Below are positions 15,751-53,110 of a stretch of 64,000 nt of DNA, one piece after another. Both the position numbers and the translations under genes were made by a program. Below the pieces are notes generated by a model, which made no database searches, was not told where the DNA came from, and saw only the letters and a program-made list of their open reading frames with translations. Within the stretch, counting starts at the first letter, position 1. Each line of letters starts with the position of its first letter. Origin of the DNA: Obrimoposthia wandeli (lineage: Eukaryota); the NCBI GenBank assembly GCA_977020255.1, contig CDROCS010000268.1, positions 124,001 to 188,000 on the forward strand. The letters are read 5' to 3'.

Positions 15751-16734
15751 TTTACTTGAATGTGCTTCTCTGATAAATTTGTTTTCTTTACTTTGGCCTA
15801 GCTAAAATCTATCGATAGCCAGCAAGTTACTTGGAATAACTGGAAGAATGTCCTTGAGACTTGGAAAGAGCCTTACTTGTGCCGTGCTGTACCGTAGTTT
15901 CTTTTTTACCATACAATTATTTTCCATCTGAGTATGGATAAGATGGGTCATTTGAATCGACACAGTTACTCTCTCTTAGAATCATCATATGCAATTGAAA
16001 ATGATGTTAGTATGGAGGCATAGTAAATTGAGACGTTCTGCAACAATTTCATCATTATTTAAAATCTCATCGTCAGGAACAATATCAGTATGTGCACATG
16101 GTCGGCCTGCCATTTCGAAAGGAAATTTAAAATTGGGAGACAGTAGGTGGATGTGTCCGGTCTAATCCACACATCCCCTCCCCCCTTGTCCTTTAAAACC
16201 GTGCATGTGTGTGGAGTGAAATTTCGTGTAGGTGTGTGGAGTGAAATTTCACTCCACACACATGCACGGTTTTAAAGGACAAGGGGGGGGCGTACCCCCC
16301 CCTAAAAATTTTTCGCGCCTTTCGCTGGCACCTAAGAATCGTCAGTAAATACAACTTATTTGTTCTGAAAGTAATTTTGTCCTTAAACTAAAATCAAAGA
16401 AAATTTATAGAAATATGGGTAAATTCATTGTAAAATGATCAATTATTTGCATTATAATTTGCATTATTCTAAAAATCCTTGATAATGTATCTTCTAATCT
16501 ATAAATTGACTGAAAATCGAACTTTCTAATTCGAAATTTACATTATTCAGAAAAATTACACAGTAAATTCATTTGTCAACTAAAATCCTTAATATAAGAT
16601 TCAACTTTGCATCTTAATTTACATTATTCTGAAATATACACGATAAAATGTATTCTAAAATGCATAAATATAAAATGATTAAAAATCGAACTTTTTATAT
16701 CCAAATTAGAATTTTTTTCTAAAGTGTCATAATG

Positions 16735-17172
16735 TAGACGTGCAAGCTACACTGTTGTCTGCAATGATTTCAGATGGATTATTAGACACATCAAAATTTT
16801 CTATAAACCATCCTTTAGCCAATACTGCGATAGGCAAGTTTAAGGATGAGAGTAAGCAATGTAGATATAAGCAATGGGTATTTTTAACGCTCCAAATCAT
16901 ATAGCTTAGAAACTATAGACGGAAAGTCCCAGATGAAAACAAAGGGAATTAGTGTTAAGCAGACTGTGCTACGCCATGCGAATTATTTAGCTGCATATGA
17001 GAGTGAACGAGTGCAACAACAACGCATTAGTTCAATTAATCACCAGCTCTATACCGTAAATATGAGTAAGATCACATTGAGTAGCAATGACGATGAGAGA
17101 AAATGGGTAGAGAAAAACCGGTCAGTTGTCTACGGACATCATAGATATCCAGATGATTTTTCACTTGAATAA
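16735..17172 (+). pseudogene. C-terminal fragment of Polinton pPolB (one frameshift near 16890)
   Basis: MISDGLLDTS, IGKFKDES, KSYSL, KTKGI, INHQLYT and LSSNDDERKWVEKNRSVVYGH align with the 40823-40275 ORF (MIADGLLDTS, IGLFKDES, INHQLYT, LSSSDDKRYWIEKNRSRAYGH). Confidence 0.9.
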
Positions 17173-17759
17173 TTGTTTTTGTATGTTTGAATTTATATGT
17201 CACAAATTTATTGTACCTAATTTTCTCTTTGGTTTAATAAATATTTGTATCCAATTCGTCTTTTTCTAAGTTTAAAATTCTAAAGTATAAAAGTTCTGTG
17301 TAAAATTTTAATTCTAAAGTATAAAAGTTCTGTGTAAAATTATTTTTTTAAACTATAAAAGTTGTTGTAAAAAATTATGTTGGAAATTTTATTTTTAAAC
17401 TATAAAAATTTTGTAAACAATTTTATTTTAATTTTTAAATTTTTTTTGTTTAAAAGCCATTTTTTTTGTTTAAAAGCCATTTTGAAAATTTTAAATTTGG
17501 CGCAAAAAAAATTGCGTCTTATTCAAATAATTAATTTTTGTAATGTTTTTTCGTGCCTGTAGATCAAGAATGAAGCCCGCCCCAAAGGGGCGGGCGGTGT
17601 GCGGTGTATGTTAGGGTCTTGGGTATGACACGGGTCGTTTACATGTATAGTTGTGAGGTAAAGTGATACTGTAGCGCATGTTTTTGTAGTTATTTTCGCG
17701 AGAATGGAGCCCGCTCCGAAGGGGCGGGCGGTGGTTTGAGTGTTTCGGTGGTGTTGTTT

Positions 17760-18192
17760 GTGGTGTGGCGTGGTGTGGCGTGGTGTGGCGTGGTTGGGTG
17801 TAGTGTGGCGGGGTGTGGTGTGNNNNNNNNNNNNNNNNNNNNNNNNNNNNNNNNNNNNNNNNNNNNNNNNNNNNNNNNNNNNNNNNNNNNNNNNNNNNNN
17901 NNNNNNNNNNNNNNNNNNNNNNNNNNNNNNNNNNNNNNNNNNNNNNNNNNNNNNNNNNNNNNNNNNNNNNNNNNNNNNNNNNNNNNNNNNNNNNNNNNNN
18001 NNNNNNNNNNNNNNNNNNNNNNNNNNNNNNNNNNNNNNNNNNNNNNNNNNNNNNNNNNNNNNNNNNNNNNNNNNNNNNNNNNATCCGTACATCGCCAAGC
18101 TAGTCTGTGACCTATATGAGAACGAGATATCCGTACATCGCCCAGCTAGTCTGTGACCTATATGAGAACGAGATATCAGTACATCTGTGACC
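17760..18192. repeat. GTGGC/GTGGT pentamer microsatellite and 46-bp tandem repeat flanking an assembly gap
   Basis: (gtggc/gtggt)n at 17760-17822. atccgtacatcgccaagctagtctgtgacctatatgagaacgagat occurs twice plus a partial copy at 18083-18192. Confidence 0.85.
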
Positions 18193-18857
18193 AATGTCGG
18201 TCCCGAGCCCCCCCCTGTCCTTTAAAACCGTGCATGTGTGTGGAGTGAAATTTCACTCCACACACCTACACGAAATTTCACTCCACACACATGCACGGTT
18301 TTTAAGGACAAGGGGGGGAGGGGGTGTGGCTTAGACCGGACACATCCACCTACTGGAGACAATCATTTTAATTAAATCCTTTTATATTGATAGAAACATT
18401 CAGATTTTTTGAATTTCCGACACTATTCTTTATGTCTACTGTAAAAGTCAATTGATATCAGTGACTTTTTGAATTTTGTGCTTCAGTTTGAATTCCTGAT
18501 CAGTTAATTTATTCAATATTTTTTCATTCCACTAGTACTACAGTCTGATTTAAGTCTGATTTATTTGCATAGATTGCACCTTACCAGGTTTTGAGAATCA
18601 TTTTCAACACTGCACTTGTTTTCTTTTGTATGCGTTTTAAAGTTGACATTTTTAAAAAATTAACTTTTTAATAAAAAACATAATAAATAAAAATCCATAT
18701 AGAGCAATAAAAATAATCAAGTTACATGTACAAGCAAATGTATAAATTATATTTTTTGATTATTCATAGAACATATGTAATTATTTATCGATAAATTCAA
18801 ATAAAAATATGTTTCGTACTGATTACCCTGATAATAACCCTGAGTATTACGATATTA

Positions 18858-39237: not shown

Positions 39238-39396
39238 TACCTAACCAATACTGATTCCATTTTTTCTCAAATTAAAGCCGAAAAAGTCTTATTTTTCGAT
39301 GAGTAACAATTGCTGTAATAATTTAAATAGTTAGTAACAAAATCCCTAACCATTTAAAGGGTACATAAAAATAAAATTGGATTTAATTCATGTTAA
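39238..39396 (+). repeat. Left copy of a ~160-bp direct repeat flanking the Polinton (right copy 51728-51886)
   Basis: tacctaaccaatactgattcc...atttaattcatgttaa is present on both sides, with one substitution (ctcaa vs ctcga). Confidence 0.95.
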
Positions 39397-39406
39397 GATA
39401 TACCTA

Positions 39407-40199
39407 AGTAGGTAGAAGGATGGAGTCTAGATCACTTGACCCCCCCCTAAAGGGTGTCACACCATAAGGGTGTGACACCCTTTAGGGGGGAGGGGGGAGG
39501 GCGAGGGGGAGGGGGTCAAGTGATCTAGTCTCCACCCTTCTTTTGGCTAACCACTAAAGGGTTGTGGTCGTCCATAATTCAAAGGGTCAAGTGGTCTAGT
39601 CTCCACCCTTCTTTTTGTGATCTAGTCTCCACCCTTCTTTTTGTGATCTAGTCTCCACCCTTCTTTTTGTGATCTAGTCTCCACCCTTCTTTTTGTGATC
39701 TAGTCTCCACCCTTCTATTGGCTAACCACTAAAGGGTTGTGGTCGTCCATAATTCAAAGGGTCAAGTGGTCTAGTCTCCACCCTTCTTTGATATACCACT
39801 ATGGTCGTCCATAAATCAAAGGGTCAAGGTCAGTTTAGACTTGAAACTTTGAAGGTATAATTAAGGTCATGTGAAAGTTCACACTTAAAAGTTAAGGAAT
39901 GTATGACGTAATCATACACACACTATTCTATGTGAAAATTTAGGCTAAAGTTCACTCTTATCAGTTAAGGAATGTGGTTTTTAACACACACACACACACT
40001 ATTCTATGTGAAAATTTAGGCTAAAGTTCACTCTTATCAGTTAAGGAATGTGGTTTTTAACACACACACACTATTCTATGTGAAAATTTAGACTAAAGTT
40101 CACTCTTATCAGTTAAGGAATGTATTACGTAATCATACACACACTAATCTATGTGAAAATTTAGATCAAAGTTTTTCTCAGGCTTACACATCTAAAGAA
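39407..40199. repeat. Left TIR (~793 bp): hairpin, G-tract, 26-bp array (5 copies, 39595-39716) and 72-76-bp array (4 core motifs, 39929-40172)
   Basis: Reverse complement of 50858-51727 apart from array copy number and hairpin length. Confidence 0.97.
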
Positions 40200-40274
40200 T
40201 TATGTTAAAATTTGTATTAAATCAAAAATAAATAAGAAAGAAGTCAGAGAATAATACAAAATTAAACACATTTA

Positions 40275-43200
40275 TTATGTAATTTCATAATGTCCATAAG
40301 CGCGGCTTCTATTTTTCTCGATCCAATAGCGTTTGTCATCTGATGAGCTGAGAGCAGTCTTTTGTATTATGATTGTGTATAGTTGATGATTTATTGTTCC
40401 AAACTTCTTTTGTGGTATAGTATATGCATTACCGTTTTCATACACGTCTAAATATGTTTGATGTACAACCGTTGAACCCTTAAGATTTACTCTTTTTGCT
40501 TTATTATTTTCAAAGTCATCTTCAAACTTAAGTGAATAACATTTACAAAGTAAGAAAATCCATTCTTTATACATTCTTCCTTCCGATTCATCTTTAAATA
40601 AACCTATTTTACTATTAAATTTATTAGAATATAATGGATCATTCACATTATAATTTGACGTATCTAATAATCCATCTGCAATCATTTTTGGTAACAACTG
40701 TTTTCTTAAATTAACGTTTTTACATTCCAAAAAGAATGAGTCGGTATCACCGGCAACTATATTAATTGAACAATTGAATAAATTACGATATATTTGCAAA
40801 TCATGATACTGAAGAGTATACATTCGTAATTTGCTAAGGTCTAGTACAGCTTGGCCTATATAATTTGGTCAATCGAGACAAATAAAGTCTTTTCTTAATA
40901 AAACAGCTATTAAATTATCATGAATTTCAATTGTTCGTTGAAACATAGGTTTGCTAGTATATGTAATTAATTTTGTAGAACTAGTGCAGATGCGAAGATT
41001 CAACCGTTTCTTAACATTTTCAACGGTTTTTCCATACAAACTAACATTTTTAAGTTTATAAAAATCTTTGTCACATTTATTCGTTGCTTGTGATCTCATT
41101 TCTGAATTATATTCTATATATTCTGCGAATATCTTAGCCTGAGAGAATTTTACTGCTCGATGAATAATTGTTACCACTGCTCCTAAACTAACATACATCT
41201 GCAATAGTCTCCAATGAATAACATAATGACTTTTTGGCGAATGCGTCATTAAAAGTTTTTCAACTTTTTAACCAGGTGGACATTTCTTTTCTGGAGCTAT
41301 AGGAAGATCATCTAAAAAGTCATGAAGGTTTTCTGGTATTACCAAGTCTACTTCCATAAAATAACCATATTCAATATGTTCCATGTTCACATTTTTCATT
41401 TCATGCAATATTTCGTTTAATTTTATATCATCAAGAATCCATTCAAAATCTCCTTTTGGTAAAGGTTGATCAAGAGCCCATCCATATAAATTATTAACAT
41501 CTATATATAAAAGACTTGTTTCTTCATCAGCGACTACATGATGCTTATTGACAAATGTCATTCCTCCTCGTATACCCGAAGAAATCATGTTGTACATTTC
41601 AGGATCCTGCATCAGTTCAACCTTATGTTTTAACATTTTTAGAGCACTTGCCCAACTCAACCCAGGAATGCTAAAAAAGTTAAGTGGTTCTAAACCATCT
41701 TCACTGAGAGCTTTTCTTCTGAATGTTTGAAACACGTCAGCTAATAAATATACGTCAGTCTTTAAGTAAACTAACATATAATCCAACATATTTCTACAAT
41801 TGGTTATTTTCCAAACATCTTGTGCTTTTTGATATTCAGTGTCTGTGATTTTATCATTCCATTTTACTGGTAAACTTAACTTATTCTGGAGGACATTTAA
41901 TGATGTAGCAAAATCATATGGGAATATTCCTTTGCCATCAATAAGTTTAGATGGAAAAACTGATCTTGTTAATGGAATAGTTGGTAATTTACCGGCTAAA
42001 TTTTCCAAAGATGATTGCAAAAATTGCAAAGAATCTATAAATCTCAGAGTTATTTGACCTAATCTTACAATCATGGCTTGAAACTTTTCCGTTGATTGTG
42101 GTATAATATTTATATCCCAGTCAGTAAATTTATTCAATGCATGTTTTAAAATATGATGTAAATCATAATCTCTGAGATTATGAAACACAATAGGTAAAGT
42201 TGGACGAAGTTTTCTTGATAAATTACATTCATTGCATGCAGGACCTAGATACTTGCCAGTAAAGTGATCATGATCTTTAACATATTTTTCAGATGATTCG
42301 TGACATAAATAACATTCATCGGCATTGCTAAATGTATGAATCTCTGCATTTGTTAAGGGAATCATTACGTTTTTAAGAGCATCTAAATACCATGGCAAAA
42401 CCTTTTCTTTAGCCAAGTTCTCTATTGACTGAAGAAACTTAACTATGCAGTCATCACCAACATTATATTGATACTGGGTTTCAATTTCATCTGTACTCAT
42501 AAATAACATACCAGATGCGACAGGCATATGCTTTTGATGATAACTCTCATCTGGTACTAATACAGATTCAAAATCAGCGTAAACGACATATTTCGGTGAT
42601 ATAGTTTTTGACCAATCATTGAATTTAACGTACTTATTCTTAGGCATAGTATACATTGTAGTGCTTTCTTGATTATAGTCACATAAAACTTTATGCTTTT
42701 CTAATGACAAATCGGTTTTGAAACCATGTAAACACTTTTCACACCATTTTCTGCTAATTCTAGTCGTTCCAGTTCGAATATTTAATAGCCGGTTAAGACA
42801 GCTTATTCCTATATAATGAAACCGTTCCTTGGATTCTAGTAACAATAAATTAACTATAGTTCCTTCCTTCATTTTTGATTTGTATGCAACATCGATATAT
42901 GGATTCTTGATAACATCAGTTTTTGATTCTTTTTCACTTACCTCGTTGAATATGAATACATTTATTATTATACCAGGATTTTGCCGTTCAAATTTTGATA
43001 TATTTGATATTTTCATAGGCATGTCTTCGGAATTATATACAAAATCATTTAAAAATTTTTCATATTGGCTTGGTCTATTTCTATTTATTTTTATTTCATT
43101 ATATTTAAGTATTGATAATATTGCATAAATAAAGCAAAGATTATCAGAGTTTTGAATATTTATGACTGCTTTAGATTTTGTAAGAGAATTTGATGATTTA

Positions 43201-43913
43201 ATATATGAATGACCTGACAATGCACAAATTTGACTATATTTAGTAACAATAAATGCATATTCAAGTATATTCATCAATTTCCAACCACTACCCTTTTCTG
43301 AATATTCTTCAACTTTATTTTCCATTGTATCTTCCATTTCTGAAATTATAGCATGTGAAAAAATCATTGCTCGATGCGAAGCATACCATTCTTTAGTTTC
43401 TCCATCATTCTTTTCAAACCTCATTCTAATGATGTATTGTATCTTTGCTTTTCCCATTAATTGCACTATTCTTTCTAGTTCGTTTAATAATGAAACTGGA
43501 ACCTTAAGACTTACAAGATTGAGATGATCTACTTTCATGGATATCATTGAATAACTATTTTCTAACGATGTTTTAGTATGTATATTGTCATTTATTTTAC
43601 GTTTTCGTGACGGAGTAGGAGCTGAAATTACTATGTTTGATGGTTCATTAATTATATCAGTTCTTTTGCTTAAAGCCGGTACTTTAAATAATTTTTTCTT
43701 ACTATCATTTTCATATTCTTTTAAATGACTAACATGTCGACTATAAAATAAGTTGTAATCAACATTTTCAGTGCTTAAACATTGTGGACATATGAAATAA
43801 TTTATCCTTTTGTATGAATAACCATAATATTTTTTCATTATATCATGACATTCTTGAGGATTAAAATGTGTATCCGAATAACAAAAATTTGAATAAGTTT
43901 TACATATACTCAT
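40275..43913 (-). pseudogene. polB: Protein-primed family B DNA polymerase (pPolB), ~1212 codons, two in-frame nonsense codons
   Basis: The three ORFs share one frame. TAA at 41270-41268 (PPG*KVEKL) and TGA at 40871-40869 (CLD*PNYIGQAVLDLSK). Motifs: VYADFES, FHNLRDYD, YLKTDVYLLADVF (exonuclease); YIDVNNLYGWA, SLYGKT, AGDTDS (polymerase); INIQNSDNLCF...FHY (vOTU-like); CYLC..VKDHDHFTGKYLGPACNECN (EndoVII-like). Confidence 0.97.
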
Positions 43914-44018
43914 CTGATGATATGATTGATTTGATTGGACTTGAGATATTGGTTGATTTGTATACTGAATAAAAAAATATATATATATAAATACAATAAT
44001 TTAATTATTTAACTTACA

Positions 44019-44573
44019 ATGTTAACAAATATTAATTATAAAGGAATTTGCTTAGATGATGTATCCAAATTAAAATTTCGAACACGACCAGAACAATACG
44101 TTTATAAAGCCAAAGATTATACAATACTTATTTTTAGAAATAAGAAATGCAGGATTATGGGATGTAAGGTACCTATTAAAAATATTTCTTACCCTTTAAG
44201 AATAAATATACTTGGTATTCAATCAATTACGGTATGTGAAAATTTAGATCAAAGTATCAATCTATTTAAATTATGGAATGTGTTACGTAATACATGTTCA
44301 TTTGACCCTGAGGTTTTCCCAGGCTTAAGATTAAATATTTTCAATCCATTGTGTGTAAATATTTTCACATCTGGAAAGGTCGTAATTTTAGGTCTTAGAA
44401 ATTTAGATTTTCAAAATCAAGTTAATGATATCATGACATACATTAAAAAAAATTATATAAATACGAAACAATTTCTAATTAAATCATTCAATTTTAAATG
44501 TCTTATAAAGCCGTTCAAAAGTATTACGAGTATGATATGTTCTTCTTGGCATCTGCATGGATTCATCCAATGA
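44019..44573 (+). CDS. TATA-box-binding protein (TBP)-like protein carried by the Polinton
   Basis: Two TBP-fold repeats. Repeat 1: TNINY...YTILIFRNKKCRIMGCK. Repeat 2: IQSITVC...INLFKL...SFDPEVFPGLRLNIFNPLCVNIFTSGKVVILGLR (compare TBP YEPELFPGLIYRM..P..VLLIF.SGK.VLTGAK). Open frame of 184 aa. Confidence 0.88.
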   Translation: MLTNINYKGICLDDVSKLKFRTRPEQYVYKAKDYTILIFRNKKCRIMGCKVPIKNISYPLRINILGIQSITVCENLDQSINLFKLWNVLRNTCSFDPEVFPGLRLNIFNPLCVNIFTSGKVVILGLRNLDFQNQVNDIMTYIKKNYINTKQFLIKSFNFKCLIKPFKSITSMICSSWHLHGFIQ

Positions 44574-44884
44574 CTATGCCAGTGACATTATCGAAAACTT
44601 CGTACAATTACCGAGTCTCTGATTTTGACGACAAAGACATTCAACAATTCAATGAAGTCGTCAAATATTTGAAAATTGACATTGAACTTGAGAATGAGGG
44701 TATATTTATGCGCGGAGATAAGTGCAAATTTTATGATTGTGGTGGAACAAAGATTTCGGATATTCAAGAAGATGGAAGAAGTTGGATGCTCGAAATAAAA
44801 ATTCTCGGATATAAAATAAATAAAAAGAATGAAACAACTCTCATCTGGAGGATTCATACAGCGACCGAATATTTTGATGTTTAA
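44498..44884 (+). CDS. Polinton accessory protein of unknown function (128 aa)
   Basis: Open ATG-initiated ORF in the gene-dense plus-strand block, overlapping the TBP-like ORF end. No motif recognised with confidence. Confidence 0.6.
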   Translation: MSYKAVQKYYEYDMFFLASAWIHPMTMPVTLSKTSYNYRVSDFDDKDIQQFNEVVKYLKIDIELENEGIFMRGDKCKFYDCGGTKISDIQEDGRSWMLEIKILGYKINKKNETTLIWRIHTATEYFDV

Positions 44885-44965
44885 TAAATATTTAATAAAA
44901 TGTTGTTATTGTTATAAACATGTACTTATTCTGATATATTTATTTTATATTAATATTTATATATA

Positions 44966-45595
44966 ATGTTATTAACAAACAATTCGACTTTTCAAGTAGT
45001 AGGACCAAGTGGTAGTGGAAAAACTTTATTTGTTTGTAAATTATTAAATTCAAAAATGTTTAAAAATAAATTTAATAAAATATATTGGCATCAAGGTGGT
45101 GACGGAGAAGCTGGTTTAACAAACCAAGAATTTAATAAAATAAAAAACATTAAGATTATTAACGGTTTTGATGAAAATTGGACGACAAGACTCGTAAAAG
45201 GTGATGTAATTGTTATTGATGACTTATAACAAGAGGCTAACAAAGAATCTGATTTTAATGATTTATTTACAAAAATTGCAAGACATAGAGAAGTTACTGT
45301 AATTTTTATAACCCAAAATTTATTTCATCAAGGAGGAAATCATCGTACTCGTAATCTTAATGTACATTATTTGATTTTATTCAAAAATCCTAGAGATCAG
45401 ACAGTGATAGATTTTATTGCTCGTCAAGCATTTCCTCATAACAAGAGTTATTTAATTGATGCGTTTCATGATGCTACATCTTTACCTCATGGTTATTTAT
45501 TTTTAAATTTTACTCAATCATATCCTGATGATTTAAGAATTGTTACTGATATATTTAACCGTAATGGTATTACAGTCTATAAACAAAATAAATAA
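44966..45595 (+). pseudogene. A32/FtsK-like genome-packaging ATPase with one in-frame stop
   Basis: Walker A GPSGSGKT and Walker B VIVIDDL. TAA at 45227-45229, then the same frame continues QEANKE...ARHREVTVIFITQNLFHQG...FKNPRD. Confidence 0.95.
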
Positions 45596-45773
45596 TAATA
45601 ATGTTTTAAAATAAAATGAATTTTAAAAAGAGTATTCTTAAACATAGTAAAAGGACAGATAAAGATGAAGTTAAAAATTAATAAACACTGTATTATATGA
45701 TCGTAATAATATTGAATTTTCAAAAAGTTTACCTTATTTTAAAACCTTAATTGACGTATCAAAAACGAATAAA

Positions 45774-46025
45774 ATGAAAATGTTGAAATCATTTCCAATT
45801 TATGTAGTTGATGATTTAATAAAAATTTTAAATAAAATAATTTATGGTAAAATTAAACCTGATGTTAATATTTTAAAATATAAAAATTCATTAATAAATT
45901 TAGCAAATTCACGTGGTAAAATTAATAAAAGAAACATTATTTATAATCAAAATGGCGGATTCATATTGGCCCTACTGCCCGCTATAGCATCAGTAATAGC
46001 TAGTGTTATAACTTCAAGATATTAG
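45774..46025 (+). CDS. Small Polinton virion/core-type protein with C-terminal QNGGFILALLP motif (N-terminus probably frameshifted)
   Basis: A Q-x-GG-F-L motif followed by a hydrophobic tail is typical of adenain-cleaved small proteins in these elements. The frame is open upstream to ~45675. Confidence 0.6.
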   Translation: MKMLKSFPIYVVDDLIKILNKIIYGKIKPDVNILKYKNSLINLANSRGKINKRNIIYNQNGGFILALLPAIASVIASVITSRY

Positions 46026-46221
46026 AAGTTTTAAAAAAAAAAACCTATTTAATTAAGATAGTTGTCTTAATAATGAAAATTATAATAATATTAAATAATT
46101 ACATTCTTTCGTTTTATACAAACATATAAACAGATTAAAATATATTTAACTTTTATAATAATGGGGATAAACAATACAAAGTTGTCTAACTTATTTATAA
46201 ATTTTAATTCTTCATGCTGCA

Positions 46222-47245
46222 ATGGAAAAGATTTGGAACAATCCAGAAGATCCAGACGGTTATACAGGGTTAGAAAAATTGACAAAAGAGTCAAACAATC
46301 AAAAACAAACACACAAAAATGGTTAAGAAATGAATTATCATATAGTCTGAATAAACCTTTAAGACGTAAATTCCTACTAGATCATATAAAACTAATGGTA
46401 TTAATTCGTTATGGCAGATGGATTTAATGGAAATGATTCCTTATTCTTCAGTAAATAACGGATTCAAGTATATTTTAACTTGTATTGATGTATTTAGTCG
46501 TTTTGCAAAAGCAGTTGGTGTTAAATCAAAATCGGGTATTGATTTATTACATGCAATAGAATCTTTAATTGTTGATGATGTACCAGTAAATATCCAAACC
46601 GATGAAGGTAAAGAATTTTTTAATTCACATGTTAAGAAATTATTTAAAACTGAAAATATCAATCATTATTCAGTATATTCTCAATATAAAGCTGCAGTAG
46701 TTGAAAGATTTAATAGAACGTTAAGAGAACGGTTAAAGAAATATTTTACAAAACAAGGTAATAAGAAATGGGTGAATGTATTACCAAAAATTATTTATGC
46801 TTATAATAATTCTAAACATAGAGGTTTAGATGGTTTAAAACCTGTAGATGTAAATAATAAAAATGAATTTGATATTTTGTTGAAACAAAATCTAAAAGAA
46901 AAGAAAGTTAAATCTAAATATAAAATTGATGATTATCTTCGAATATCAAAAATAAGTACAAGTCCATTTATTAAAAATTTTAATCAAAATTGGAGTGATG
47001 AGGTTTTTCAAATTCATGATATTAATTATAAACAAAATCCAATAATGTATATTTTAAAAGATATTGATAACGTCATCATCAAAGGAAAATTTTATAAACA
47101 AGAGTTACAATTAATTGATAAACCTAAACTATATCGAATACAAGAAATTTTAGAAACTAAAGGTCGTGGTAAGAATAAACAATATTACGTAAAGTGGCAC
47201 GGATACTCTGAACCTTCTTGGATATTTGCTTCTCAAATTGAATAA
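46222..47245 (+). pseudogene. int: Retroviral-like (rve) integrase with C-terminal chromodomain; two 1-bp deletions in the N-terminal part
   Basis: MEKIWNNPEDPDGYTGLEKL / frameshift ~46281 / KRVKQ..WLRNELSYSLNKPLRRKF / frameshift ~46374 / TRSYKTNGINSLWQMDL. DDE residues in WQMDL, IQTDEGKEF and VVERFNRTL. Chromodomain YRIQEIL..YYVKWHGY..SW. Confidence 0.95.
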
Positions 47246-48258
47246 TGTCAAAATATATTATTTTACCTAGTAATAGTTGTCCAAGTACTCAACCTAACAA
47301 TACAGCCAATCAATTTACTGTAGATTGGGAAAACTCTCTAAATTTAGATGGTGAATGGGAGGTTGCCTTGACTGAATTTGTATTTAATTATACTCCTTTA
47401 ACAATACAAACTAATTCAAAAATACTTTATAAAACGGAAAAGATAGAAATGAAAACTTTCGATGTATCTTTTGCAATTTTAAATGGATTAATTTTTAATA
47501 ATTTAAATACTGTTTTCAATTTCAAAATTACAAAGGATCAAAAATAAGAAATAAGTACAATTAACAGCATTCATCGAATGTTGTTAAAATTCGAAACTTT
47601 AGAAGAATCAAAAATTATAGGTTTTAATGAAATACAAAAAATTTCTAGTCATGTTATAACAAGTGATGAAATTGTTGACATAAATAAAAATATTCATGCT
47701 AAAATGAGAATTACAATTTATTCTTTAGCTGAATATGAATACGAAATAAAATTTAATCAAAATTATTTGATACAAGATAGTTCTTCATTATGTAATATTA
47801 TAGCCAGTAAATGTAATGAAATTTTTAAAAGCTGTAATATAGATTCAAACGGATTATTTGATATTTTAATAAAGAAAAATGTAAAATCAGTTTTATTTGA
47901 CGAAAAACTTGCATCTTTATTAGGTTTAAATAATGTTTTCTTTGAGAAACGAATTAAAGGTTTTCAAAAACCAACACTTTCTAGCTCATATAATCAAATG
48001 TATATTTATACTAGTTTAACAGATTCTGTCTTAGTAGGATCTGATTATGTTCCACTGTTAAAGTCTATTTGGTTAAAATCATTAAAATATCGATATGGAG
48101 ATGTAGTAAATGTTAAAATTGATAATCCAATGTACTTGAAAATGAGAGATTCAAGTATTAATAGAATCGAGGTAAATATACGTGATGATTCTGGTAATTT
48201 AATTCCATTTTCATATGGAGCAAAAACTAGTTTAACTCTTCATTTACGTAAAGTATAA
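47245..48258 (+). pseudogene. Minor capsid protein (penton, single jelly-roll) with one in-frame stop
   Basis: N-terminal LPSNS..PNN..NQF..LNLDGEWEVALTEF and C-terminal YIYTSL..LVG..PLL..NPMY..IEVNIRDDSG..IPF..LTLHLRK. TAA at 47545-47547 is in frame with the ATG at 47578. Confidence 0.9.
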
Positions 48259-48295
48259 ACAATATAAATATATTTAAAATATAAACATATATAAA

Positions 48296-48697
48296 ATGAA
48301 TACATCAATTATAAAATTTTATAGCAAAAGTCAACAGGGCGGTGAACTTCCCTATTTCATTGGTAAACAATATGGATCTGGTTGGTATCAAACTATTTCT
48401 AGATTAGCTATTCCATTTATTAAAAAAGCTGGTTTATCAGCAGCTACAAGTGCTGCCAATGCAATTGGTGAAACGGTAGGAACTGCGTTAACAAATCCAA
48501 AAAACATAATTTCATCTCTCAAAGAAAATACAATCAAAGAAGTCAAAACTTTGATTCCAAAATTAAAAAATAATGCTGTTGAGAGTTTAAATAAAGTCGT
48601 AAATTGTGTTGAACAAAATGGAAAGGGTCTTAAACGTAAAAGAAATAATTTAAATAGTATAAACAAACGTCTTAAAGGTACTATTTTCCAAAAATGA
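48296..48697 (+). CDS. Basic core/DNA-packaging-type precursor protein
   Basis: QQGGELPYFIG.QYGSGW..RLAIPFIKKAG and QNGKGLKRKR are Gly-rich protease-site-like motifs with a basic tail. Position is just upstream of the major capsid protein (MCP) gene. Confidence 0.7.
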   Translation: MNTSIIKFYSKSQQGGELPYFIGKQYGSGWYQTISRLAIPFIKKAGLSAATSAANAIGETVGTALTNPKNIISSLKENTIKEVKTLIPKLKNNAVESLNKVVNCVEQNGKGLKRKRNNLNSINKRLKGTIFQK

Positions 48698-49914
48698 CTA
48701 GTATAAAATCTGAATTGTGTATTTTCGATAGACCATTACCTCAAGTAGTGATTGAAAATTCAAGTTTTGAAGAAATATTTCCAATCAATTCAATTACTGG
48801 AAAAAATTTAAATGACATAGAATTTAATATTCATGCATCTGAAGAAGATTATCTGGATTTGAATGATACTTTGTTAAATATTAAATTAAAAGTTGTAAAT
48901 GAAGATGGTACTGATTTAATGAAAGATAGCGATGTAACTCCAGAGAATTACATGTTTCAAACTTTGTTTAGAGATGTTATTCTAACACTTAATAATGTAA
49001 AGGTTGAAGGAGGAAATGGAACGTATACTCATAAGGCTATATTCGATACTCTTTTGAATTTTAGTAGTGATACCAAGTATACTAACCTTGAATGTTCCGG
49101 GTATGATGATGATGCAGAAAATCGTAAACAATGGATTAGTGAATCTAAAATATTTTCATTGTGTAATTCAATTAGATTAGATTTCTTTGATCAACCAAAA
49201 TATTTGATTCCAGGGATTAATGTTCATTTGAGATTTATGAGAAATCAGCATAATATTTCGCTCTATTCAGAAACTTCAAAACCAATTATTCAAATTCTAG
49301 ATGCTAGATTGTATGTTAGAAGAGTAAAAGTTGATTCTTCAGTAATGATTGGACATCAGTTAGGTTTGCAAAGTCAGAATGCAGTTTACCCAATTAGAAA
49401 AACTCAGTTAGTAACATATTCAATTCCTCAGGGTTCTTTGGAACTTAATAAAGATCAAATATTCGGAGACTATCGTTTACCCAAGTTCATTTTGATTGCT
49501 TTCAAAGATACACCTCAGGGTGGTAAGGAATACAAAGTTAAATCTTCTACGTTCAATACATTTAATGTTTCAACAATATCATTAGCTAGAAATACAGATT
49601 ATCGAGAAACTTATAATCTAGATAATAACAATTTTTCATTAGCATATATGCAGTCAATTATTCGAAATATGAATATTTTAGATAAAAACATGAATAATGG
49701 TATCAGATTTTCTGATTTTAAATCAGGAAGTTCGATTTTCACTTTTCTATTAGCACCAGATTTTGATATAAACACTACTCAAGTGCCTAAAACTGGTAAT
49801 TTAAGACTTGAAATTAGATTTAATTCTCCTTTGGTTGTTCCAACAAGTGTTTTGATTTACGGAATATTTGATTCCGAAATTCAGATTACGAAAAATAAAA
49901 CTGTGATTGTATGA
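48694..49914 (+). CDS. Major capsid protein (double jelly-roll), intact 406-aa ORF
   Basis: SELCIFDRPLPQ, IEFNIHASEEDYLDLNDT, ENYMFQTLFRDVILTLNNV, DFFDQPKYLIPGINVHLRF, GNLRLEIRF...VLIYGIFDSEIQI. Confidence 0.92.
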   Translation: MTSIKSELCIFDRPLPQVVIENSSFEEIFPINSITGKNLNDIEFNIHASEEDYLDLNDTLLNIKLKVVNEDGTDLMKDSDVTPENYMFQTLFRDVILTLNNVKVEGGNGTYTHKAIFDTLLNFSSDTKYTNLECSGYDDDAENRKQWISESKIFSLCNSIRLDFFDQPKYLIPGINVHLRFMRNQHNISLYSETSKPIIQILDARLYVRRVKVDSSVMIGHQLGLQSQNAVYPIRKTQLVTYSIPQGSLELNKDQIFGDYRLPKFILIAFKDTPQGGKEYKVKSSTFNTFNVSTISLARNTDYRETYNLDNNNFSLAYMQSIIRNMNILDKNMNNGIRFSDFKSGSSIFTFLLAPDFDINTTQVPKTGNLRLEIRFNSPLVVPTSVLIYGIFDSEIQITKNKTVIV

Positions 49915-49948
49915 AGTAAGCTTATTGTATATTATATTCTTTATTTAA

Positions 49949-50287
49949 ATTAGTACTTTAGAAATTCATAAATCCGGAAAAATATTATTGAATAACAAAT
50001 TTAATGGAGTATATTCATTGGATAAAATTCCATCATTAAAACCCGGAGGCTACATTATCAATACTCATACTTCAAATCTACCAGGCGAACATTGGATAGC
50101 AATATTCGTTGACAGATTCGAGATTCGGGTGTTTGATCCTTTTGGATTCTATTATCCTGCAAAGTGGGTTTCTACACTTGAAAAAGAAAACATTCCAGTC
50201 TACTATAATCGAGTTAAATGTCAGAATCCATTAACTAAAAACTGCGGACCTCTGAGTATTTTATGGTTGAAACTTCAACACAAATAA
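49949..50287 (+). pseudogene. Adenain-like cysteine maturation protease; start codon apparently mutated (ATT)
   Basis: FNGVYSLDKIP, INTHTSNLPGEHWIAI (His), VFDPFG (Asp), CQNPLTKNCG (Gln/Cys). The frame opens ATT AGT ACT TTA GAA ATT (xSTLEI) right after an in-frame TAA. Confidence 0.9.
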
Positions 50288-50338
50288 TTTTAAGTATAAA
50301 CAAATATATCATTATAGTATTTCATTTTATTTTTTCAA

Positions 50339-50791
50339 ATGGCTTTTATTGATTTAGAATGTTTTATTGATAATAATGGAGAATATATTCCAAAGGAATT
50401 ATGTATAATGTATGTGAATGATATGACTTGTCCATTTCATTACGTGTTTAAAAATCAAATACCATGGAGTAGTTTATCATTTACAGTTAAAAGAAAAAAT
50501 CTATATTTGATAAATCATCATCATCAGTTATCCTGGTTTGAAGGTGAAAGCTCTGATATTCATATTGATGATGTTGAAACAATATTCTATGTTATGGATT
50601 CTATTGATGGAAAGAAAATTAATTTAGTGAAACGAATGTTTCCAAATTTGAGAATTGTGAATTATAATAAAAGTTTCAAAAATTTAAAGGAAATGCCAAA
50701 AAATATTCGATGTCCGTTTAGAAAACACGGAAAACATTGTGCTTATTTGAAATGTTTTTCTCTATGTATTGATTATGTAAATTGTATATAA
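50339..50791 (+). CDS. DEDD/DnaQ-like exonuclease-fold accessory protein
   Basis: N-terminal FIDLECF..YIPKEL, HYVFK, HHQLSWFEG and a C-terminal C-x4-H-x3-C-x4-C cluster. Open frame. Confidence 0.6.
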   Translation: MAFIDLECFIDNNGEYIPKELCIMYVNDMTCPFHYVFKNQIPWSSLSFTVKRKNLYLINHHHQLSWFEGESSDIHIDDVETIFYVMDSIDGKKINLVKRMFPNLRIVNYNKSFKNLKEMPKNIRCPFRKHGKHCAYLKCFSLCIDYVNCI

Positions 50792-50857
50792 ATATATTTA
50801 TTAAGGATATTTTATTTTAATATATAATTTATGTTATTTAAATAAATTTTACCATAT

Positions 50858-51727
50858 TTCTTTAGATGTGTAAGCCTGAGAAAAACTTTGATCTAAATTT
50901 TCACATAGAATAGTGTATGTATGATTACGTAATACATTCCTTAACTGATAAGAGTGAACTTTAGTCTAAATTTTCACATAGAATAGTGTGTGTGTGTTAA
51001 AAAACCACATTCCTTAACTGATAAGAGTGAACTTTAGCCTAAATTTTAACATAGAATAGTGTGTGTGTGTTAAAAACCACATTCCTTAACTGATAAGAGT
51101 GAACTTTAGTCTAAATTTTCACATAGAATAGTGTGTGTGTGTTAAAAAACCACATTCCTTAACTGATAAGAGTGAACTTTAGCCTAAATTTTCACATAGA
51201 ATAGTGTGTGTATGATTACGTCATACATTCCTTAACTTTTAAGTGTGAACTTTCACATGACCTTAATTATACCTTCAAAGTTTCAAGTCAAAACTGACCT
51301 TGACCCTTTGATTTATGGACGACCATAGTGGTATATCAAAGAAGGGTGGAGACTAGACCACTTGACCCTTTGAATTATGGACGACCACAACCCTTTAGTG
51401 GTTAGCCAATAGAAGGGTGGAGACTAGATCACAAAAAGAAGGGTGGAGACTAGACCACTTGACCCTTTGAATTATGGACGACCACAACCCTTTAGTGGTT
51501 AGCCAAAAGAAGGGTGGAGACTAGATCACTTGACCACCTCCCCCTCCCCCCTCCCCCTCCCCCCTAAAGGGTGTCACACCATAAGGATGTCTTGCCACAC
51601 CATAAGGGTATATGTTGCCTCACCATAGGTGAGGCAACATATACCCTTATGGTGTGGCAAGACATCCTTATGGTGTGACACCCTTTAGGGGGGGTCAAGT
51701 GATCTAGACTCCATCCTTCTACCTACT
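50858..51727. repeat. Right TIR (~870 bp): 72-73-bp array (5 core motifs), 26-bp array (2 copies) and a 135-bp perfect palindrome
   Basis: Starts ttctttagatgtgtaagcctgag, the reverse complement of 40177-40199, and ends ccttctacctact. Confidence 0.97.
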
Positions 51728-53110
51728 TACCTAACCAATACTGATTCCATTTTTTCTCGAATTAAAGCCGAAAAAGTCTTATTTTTCGATGAGTAACAAT
51801 TGCTGTAATAATTTAAATAGTTAGTAACAAAATCCCTAACCATTTAAAGGGTACATAAAAATAAAATTGGATTTAATTCATGTTAAAGGTCATATGAGGT
51901 GTGCAAATAATACGATATTATTATATAGATTTAATGTTCTGAGAAAGTATTTTTGATTATTTTCAAAAGAATCAAGCGTATTGAATTATTTTTAATTTAA
52001 TACTTTTGAATGATATCGCAATCGATTTAAATTAAATTTCTATTAAATTACAATCAATTTTAAATTATTGATATAACAAATATTTTCTAAAGTAATTATT
52101 AAACAAAATGTCAACTGAAGTACTGAGCAAAATAAAAAAGAAGTATTATGCACATCATTTTAATTCAGAAACTTGTAGTCAGGAATGAGCTGGAGCACAG
52201 TGGATTATGTTTACCATACACAGAATTAACTCAAGTTTATTATTTTACTAAGTCAAGAAAAATATGCATGGTTAACTATGAGAATAGTAGATAAGTTTTG
52301 TAATTAGCAAATTACACCAAAATCCAAATTTATCCAGTTAATCAAAACGGAAAAAGCTTTGCTTCATTTATTATTCAATGAGTGAAGCGACACTATAATA
52401 AAGATTTGGCCTATTAATATGCTTCTCTACAGAATACTCCATTGTGGATCAGTGATTAATTGCTAAATTTCTAATTTCATCACAGACAATCATTGAGCAG
52501 CTGAAAGAATCCCATATTTAATTTTGAACCATCAGCGATGAGAGCCAAATAGTGATATTGAATTTGTCTGCCCAATAACGACTATGATGAAATAACTCTA
52601 GATTTCACAAAAAATATTGAAATTAAATAGTAAATTGACTTCGGTTTCCGGTTTTTTCTTTTTTTATCAGCTGTTTGCTATGATATATTATAAAGCAATA
52701 CCTGTAATTAATACGGAATAAATTCAATTCAATGTAGTGAAATCAATCCAATTAACTGCACACTACTTACCGATAAGCCTCAATGCTGAATACATATCTG
52801 AGATTTAATGTCTAAATTAATAAATTTAAAATAAAATCAAAAACTCGTTTTTACTTCATATTTTCAATTTATCTCTGCTTTCTGTTTTAGACAAATGGTT
52901 TCGTCAAACTTTCATAATCTAACTGCATTTTTCTAAAACTTACTAAATTTCAGCTGTTTATAAAAAAACTGCATGGTATAACAAACTATTTAATAATGAA
53001 GTAATATTCTTTAAAATTTGGTACCAATATTTTTAATTAATTTTATAAATGCATGTTTAAAATAATTTTACAAAATTAGAATGACAAATTCTTTAGAATC
53101 AAGTCAATTA

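Follow-up and report, generated by a model that had tools for sequence, protein, structure and literature searches.

Inner terminal repeats of a Maverick/Polinton element in Obrimoposthia wandeli almost certainly derive from its own TBP-like gene

The terminal inverted repeats (TIRs) of a Maverick/Polinton element in Obrimoposthia wandeli contain tandem units that resemble the element's own TBP-like gene. This raises the question of whether the repeats were built from the gene and, if so, how gene sequence came to lie at both ends of the element and whether it acts on the gene from there. The window analysed here is a stretch of 64,000 nt (assembly GCA_977020255.1, contig CDROCS010000268.1, positions 124,001 to 188,000 of the forward strand), and it was compared with related copies in the same host genome (1.35 Gb, AT-rich, about 27% GC). 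The element and its genes lie in the window as follows.

39401..39406, + strand: left 6-bp target-site duplication, TACCTA
39407..51727, no strand: Maverick/Polinton element, 12,321 bp, with AGTAG...CTACT ends
39407..40220, + strand: left TIR, 814 nt
40275..43913, - strand: protein-primed PolB (pPolB), three ORFs in the window copy
44019..44573, + strand: TBP-like ORF, 184 aa (PF00352, 45.8 bits; AF2 and Foldseek)
44966..45595, + strand: putative A32-like packaging ATPase, with a stop codon inside in the window copy
46418..47245, + strand: rve integrase with chromodomain
48694..49914, + strand: double jelly-roll major capsid protein, from predicted structure
49952..50287, + strand: adenain-like protease region (PF00770, Peptidase_C5, E 0.003, below cut-off, partial ORF)
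50837..51727, - strand: right TIR, 891 nt
51728..51733, + strand: right 6-bp target-site duplication

In gene content this is an ordinary Maverick/Polinton. With the other members of the group (polintoviruses, 'adintoviruses') it shares pPolB, the rve integrase, a putative ATPase, a putative protease-like ORF, a double jelly-roll capsid protein, TIRs and a target-site duplication (TSD). Its TIRs are long, its TSD is 6 bp and its ends are AG...CT, the termini reading AGTAGG and not (AGT)2 or (AG)3. By profile, pPolB matches PF03175 (E 4.6e-5, a single fragment under the gathering score; on contig C147 it is one uninterrupted tblastn match), the integrase matches PF00665 (E 9.3e-7, 29.5 bits vs a cut-off of 32.6) with a chromodomain at E 0.002, and the ATPase matches Pox_A32 on a partial ORF (E 0.003, below cut-off); the ORFs at 47245-48697 had no significant Pfam match. 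A sequence-level PDB search gave no match to the capsid protein, and its AF2 model (pLDDT 92) retrieved the PBCV-1 capsid in Foldseek (E 9e-16) as well as those of an iridovirus, Sputnik and mavirus. The TBP-like protein is predicted to have a TBP fold with a shortened first repeat (AF2 pLDDT 87; Foldseek TBP E 2e-9, TM about 0.6); its binding to TATA or array DNA is only putative. Most homologues are 145-170 aa long, and the window ORF exceeds the majority by about 40 residues (44450-44573), running into the next ORF, with the last 35 or so residues of low confidence in the model. TBP is named as an accessory homologue in two figure legends of a report on related viruses (bioRxiv 10.1101/697771).

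The family to which the element belongs is large. A protein search of the genome returned at least 150 matches, all 150 that were scored being 96-100% identical, and an exact match to a 27-nt probe for both the gene and the TIR form occurs 4,882 times genome-wide. Extrapolation from the first 100 of these matches listed, 40 of them genes, gives approximately 1,950 gene copies and 2,900 TIR ends. The median for vertebrate Polintons is given as 8 copies (PMC8097293), against about 2,000 here, and the length of Polintons as 13-25 kb in another account (10.1101/2023.08.22.554363), against 12.3 kb. Homology searches elsewhere found five distant loci in viral_contigs and 80 loci in metagenome_contigs, the 20 closest of the latter mostly on contigs of 1-7 kb. 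Around the element, beyond the 6-bp TSD, lies a 159-nt host direct repeat (39238-39396 and 51728-51886, 99% identical), so the element either landed in a tandem duplication or gave rise to one when it integrated. The window also holds a near-identical direct duplication (1 to about 8900, spacing 4.6-4.8 kb) and, at about 16143-18355, another Maverick-like element, which is non-autonomous, retains a 3' fragment of pPolB, has hairpins in its TIRs and is flanked by GAGACA repeats.

The inner TIRs and the part of the gene that they resemble are laid out as follows.

39869..40186, + strand: left array, derived from the TBP gene and oriented as it is: a truncated head and 4 units, each of 72-76 nt
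40150..40172, + strand: innermost unit core, 23/23 identical to 44233-44255
40173..40186, + strand: piece corresponding to 44314-44327; a probable deletion made its joint with the 23-mer
40187..40197, + strand: CACATCT-containing piece common to the outer-TIR repeat and gene positions 44366-44372
40271..40276, - strand: AATAAA that overlaps the stop codon of pPolB, some 100 nt short of the left 23-mer, a putative poly(A) signal
44213..44329, + strand: donor stretch in the TBP-like ORF, residues about 66-104, aligning to the second TBP repeat
50841..50846, + strand: AATAAA downstream of the final plus-strand ORF, some 40 nt short of the right 23-mer, a putative poly(A) signal
50871..51258, - strand: right array of 5 units, opposite in orientation to the gene
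51559..51693, no strand: perfect 66-bp fold-back palindrome in the outer right TIR (z -19.6)

The preliminary description had reported the 23-nt identity and the unit numbers of four on the left and five on the right, and both are borne out; the reverse complement of the 23-mer lies at 50885-50907 in the right TIR. It had also called for a test of significance. Local alignment of 39850-40200 with the element interior (40230-50830, both strands) scores 65, a value reached by none of 300 dinucleotide shuffles of the interior (mean 28.8, SD 2.5, maximum 38), and five of five host-flank controls score 25-31. The array of another copy (L041) scores 61, which none of 40 shuffles reach, and the outer TIR shows no signal against its own interior (30 vs a shuffle mean of 30.3). 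The further pieces said to continue the match fared less evenly. The 14-nt piece is indeed collinear, with its gene position corrected to 44314-44327; it matches at 13 of 14 positions in the window copy and exactly in L035, L037, L041 and L042, and its joint with the 23-mer has a 4-nt microhomology in old genes. The 11-nt piece at 40187-40197 does resemble the gene at about 44366 but fits the outer-TIR repeat better, so it may be TIR-derived; it is also a possible return-switch microhomology. What had been taken for an upstream match (about 39859-39876) is a deletion junction of the window copy, where the outer-TIR repeat abuts the array, and the true head, seen in other copies, is 27 nt identical to 44214-44240 (144 exact matches). 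The inner TIR arrays almost certainly derive from the TBP-like gene.

The donor stretch encodes residues that are invariant or nearly so (Q68, S69, L82, P97, E98, F100 and R104) among 18 aligned homologues, themselves 41-54% identical to the window protein. Two sister families in the same genome, C and D, have TBP proteins 50-56% identical and shorter TIRs, and in the four copies tested the TIR scores 27-31 against its own interior (shuffle means 30-32), that is, there is no match; C919, C147 and six of ten further copies, being nested, truncated or of unlocated TIR, were excluded from this comparison. The recurrence in related TBP-bearing families for which a check had been proposed is thus absent from both. 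The whole TIR scores 29 against a family-D interior and 41 against one family-C interior (0/20 shuffles, maximum 40), the latter being one marginal result in eight tests and probably due to chance. Because the TBP residues are conserved in families without the TIR piece, the gene is the older sequence and the TIR piece the copy; at the level of sequence comparison, the gene is shown to be the donor. The window family lacks two features of its sisters: an additional ORF within the left TIR boundary, seen in families C and D, and an apparently intron-bearing ORF at the right, seen in family C (L058, L078, L080, L090, L092). More distant TBP-like genes, 34-45% identical (L088+L089, C624 11465-11887; L092+L093, C3615 13918-14331; L094, 164-583), point to still more families in the genome; many copies lie nested within each other.

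Copies of the window family fall into two age classes, old copies being 85-91% and young copies 96-99% identical to the window over pPolB. In a gene tree of 20 of the 78 recovered gene copies, with no rows from C or D and midpoint-rooted for drawing only, the young copies form one clade (100/100, stem 0.041, tips no longer than 0.005) in which subfamily B falls within A, and the old copies sit on long branches. Old TIRs have one to three units, in places near-identical to their own gene version, and in two of them (L270, L234) there is a single contiguous unit matching about 44213-44276. Young TIRs have two to five units, with further deletions and a CA microsatellite. Intermediates with one, two and up to five units are thus found among the copies recovered, where two-unit forms and forms of two to five units occur, which upholds the earlier suggestion of capture followed by deletion and amplification. 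Two probes for less-deleted forms gave 19 matches (16 old-type TIRs, two genes and one chimera) and 17 matches (eight genes, seven TIRs and two TIR-to-gene junctions). The left junction is fixed at about 44213-44215, directly after the CACATCT-containing outer-TIR repeat; overlaps of 3-8 nt, judged by eye, are seen there and at the deletions. Contigs of four runs from one sample, possibly the source sample, cover all 30 bins, with loose ends at 44215 in two runs.

Arrays of young elements mostly keep old states of the gene, as shown by comparison of the aligned copies. In 82 of 98 cases their middle units have the CAG of old genes and not the TAA of young ones, and in 47 of 54 TIR heads the base preceding the head is still the old one. 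Window units score 69 vs 65, 46 vs 46 and 51-56 vs 46 against an old gene and their own gene, respectively. Where an old TIR has two units, the second matches the gene exactly and part of the first has diverged, which could reflect a second copying event. Between the old copies and the young wave, which is the more abundant, arrays grew from one to three units to two to five, and the copies recovered revealed no young lineage that amplified without arrays; selection could also produce this pattern.

The fold-back palindrome is shortened at the left end (about 39440-39490), and its 21-23-nt repeats, inverted here, stand in direct orientation in another TIR type, so that one of the two types likely arose by snap-back. 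Repeats of 26 nt at 39591-39716 look like inverted copies of the element terminus. The palindrome and the inverted terminus copies are consistent with frequent template switching. At several loci (L036, L227, L228, L235, L239, L243, L266, L268), TBP-derived TIR units have an AT-rich module, roughly 450 nt long, beside or within them, and in C344 the module forms an inverted pair; it is possibly a separate repeat or a non-autonomous derivative.

The preliminary description had further proposed a check on whether the match co-evolves, and subfamily B allows this to be examined. It differs from A at several positions of the donor stretch, including a diagnostic base in the 23-mer. Among the first 100 of the 4,882 probe matches listed, counted by hand, the genes divide evenly (20 T, 20 A) whereas the TIRs read T in 59 cases and A in one. 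About half of young genes carry a changed 23-mer base vs <1% of TIR ends; genome-wide, 23 TIR ends have the B base A, and other substitutions account for 17 (C) and two (G). The longest perfect match between a TIR and its own gene measures 15-19 nt in each of the 12 B-type elements; it reaches at least 21 nt in 11 of 22 A-type elements (often from one TIR per element, and leaving out the unparsed C1137 and the chimeric C55). Four of the six typed elements with the most gene-like head have B genes that now mismatch it. By this evidence the TIR units are shown not to track the gene changes of subfamily B, so co-evolution fails for about half of young genes. Of the B-base TIR ends, 18 were fetched and 12 had a typable gene, all of them right-hand TIRs; the gene has the same base in seven of the 12, six of these seven being one haplotype. 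Such sharing fits a single conversion but is weak evidence for it, with about 45% expected by chance. Counting against a purely drifting relic, this diagnostic base of the 23-mer occurs in both states among old genes (one of eight with the young state) and old TIRs, which requires parallel change or later exchange. Subfamily B largely lacks the 128-aa ORF after TBP (L060+L061 in C3320, L062-L075), and the two TIRs of some copies at these loci differ in type, which makes their ends recombinant.

The arrays are probably a stretch of the gene that was captured once, copied to both ends, then shortened and multiplied, and that has since mostly drifted. In an ancestor of the old and young subfamilies, the polymerase would have switched template during protein-primed strand-displacement replication, moving onto a displaced single strand at short microhomologies, and so copied at least 115 nt of the TBP-like gene into the outer-TIR repeat. 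Panhandle pairing of the ends or homogenisation of the TIRs would have carried the piece to the other TIR, microhomology deletions together with slippage or unequal exchange would have built the tandem array, and gene conversion, acting now and then, may account for one or two later shared states. The data can be explained with no regulatory role.

A function at the DNA level would leave this origin unchanged. The array may have been co-opted as an enhancer, a terminator or a helper in packaging or replication; this is the main alternative, and we consider it rather unlikely. One unit type carries TTACGTAA or TGACGTAA, which we take to be bZIP-type sites, and TGA(C/G)TCA, presumably an AP-1 site, is found in the TIRs of families C and D; yet TTACGTAA also occurs three times in coding sequence, and the window TIRs hold just one of each motif. 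Immediately past the poly(A) hexamers, the outward strand is GT-rich. Arrays also persist in all young TIR types seen, next to a widely variable outer TIR, and expanded in the young wave, but their unit number and sequence vary freely, and the full core is kept by 16 of 60 innermost units (at loci from targeted searches, a non-random sample). It is improbable, too, that the captured piece became a new terminal cis-element, through bZIP-type sites or a site for the element's own TBP-like protein, in a lineage without the terminal genes of its sister families, that its multiplication helped drive the burst to about 2,000 copies, and that TIR-gene recombination reshuffles the polymerase module.

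The preliminary description had set beside capture an antisense, small-RNA or autoregulatory loop. In an antisense or small-RNA loop, transcription continuing into the TIRs would yield RNA able to silence the TBP-like mRNA. The geometry is as that description stated: transcripts running outward would be antisense to that mRNA at both ends. Polymerase II does transcribe beyond poly(A) sites, and complementarity is perfect over 23-27 nt in 10 of 22 A-type elements. It is under 21 nt in all 12 B-type elements, however, and B is as numerous as A; there is no TIR-gene co-variation, and the match is absent from families C and D (0/4 copies). An AATAAA also stands upstream of both arrays. Cleavage usually falls 10-30 nt downstream of the hexamer, so that normal use of these hexamers would give mature mRNAs whose 3' ends lie short of the 23-mers. 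An antisense loop is thus very unlikely.

A third possibility is that the TIR piece pairs repeatedly with the gene on single-stranded intermediates and is refreshed by homology-guided copying, the innermost unit staying the most gene-like. Some recombinants of this kind are preserved. Contig C55 joins the 5' part of the gene, inside the 23-mer, to the inner left TIR, with a pPolB segment duplicated, and at two old loci the TIR runs into contiguous gene sequence, to 44450 (L266) and 44365 (L278); these two may have arisen by recombination that deleted pPolB, or be what is left of a longer capture. Such rare recombinants make occasional conversion possible, as do the 23-mer base found in both states and the seven B-base elements that share their gene's base. 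For a family of about 2,000 the yield is small, with no exact young TIR-to-gene junction and one gene-to-TIR junction in 19 matches, and B-specific changes have reached <1% of TIR ends; continual refreshing is accordingly highly improbable. Counting against the single capture, the return junction predicted for a full-length capture through 44372 was not recovered, the one match being a gene copy with a small deletion. Finally, chance similarity in DNA of about 27% GC, an assembly artefact and transfer from TIR to gene are refuted by the shuffles (0/300), the thousands of copies, the contigs of four runs covering all 30 bins, and a coding conservation older than the TIR piece.

Single capture followed by remodelling, the reading we favour, draws on processes of known kinds. 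In the FoSTeST model of Pack-TIR and Pack-MULE elements, template switching at microhomologies captures foreign sequence that transposition then spreads, and repetitive TIRs are named as stalling sites (PMC8277862). The cargo described there is host DNA between the termini, whereas here it is the element's own ORF, placed inside the TIR at both ends; the window element was considered as a Pack-TIR and rejected on these grounds. For the step from one end to the other, a homology-restoring model of the adenovirus and PRD1 ITR panhandle has an insertion at one end copied to the other; direct evidence for panhandles is said there to be lacking (PMC11886824), and for Polintons this step is by analogy only. 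Butterfly Polintons are described with TIRs of about 2 kb that contain whole hexon and adenain genes (10.1101/2025.02.07.637071), so that TIRs containing the element's own coding sequence are common to both; those of the window element differ in holding non-coding, tandemly multiplied fragments of a gene from the middle of the element, which lies at distances of 4 and 6.6 kb from the two arrays, and this also sets the element apart from other Polintons. Passages of four accounts (10.1101/2023.08.22.554363, PMC8097293, PMC9863843, PMC6431247) make no mention of a TIR array formed from an internal gene fragment, and a search by title and abstract opening, with most subscription journals and Repbase reports outside its coverage, found no description of a Polinton TIR of this origin. 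The array is apparently a structural variant not described before.

The match between TIR and gene also carries a caution, namely, that such a match need not imply antisense control. The origin and change of Polinton TIRs are barely documented, and their replication model is an extrapolation from adenoviruses and PRD1. In the window element, gene sequence from the interior serves as a traceable tag: it passed into the TIR, came to lie at both ends and was then reshaped. Because its intermediates and recombinants survive among the thousands of copies, template switching, end homogenisation and recombination between TIR and interior become countable from sequence alone.
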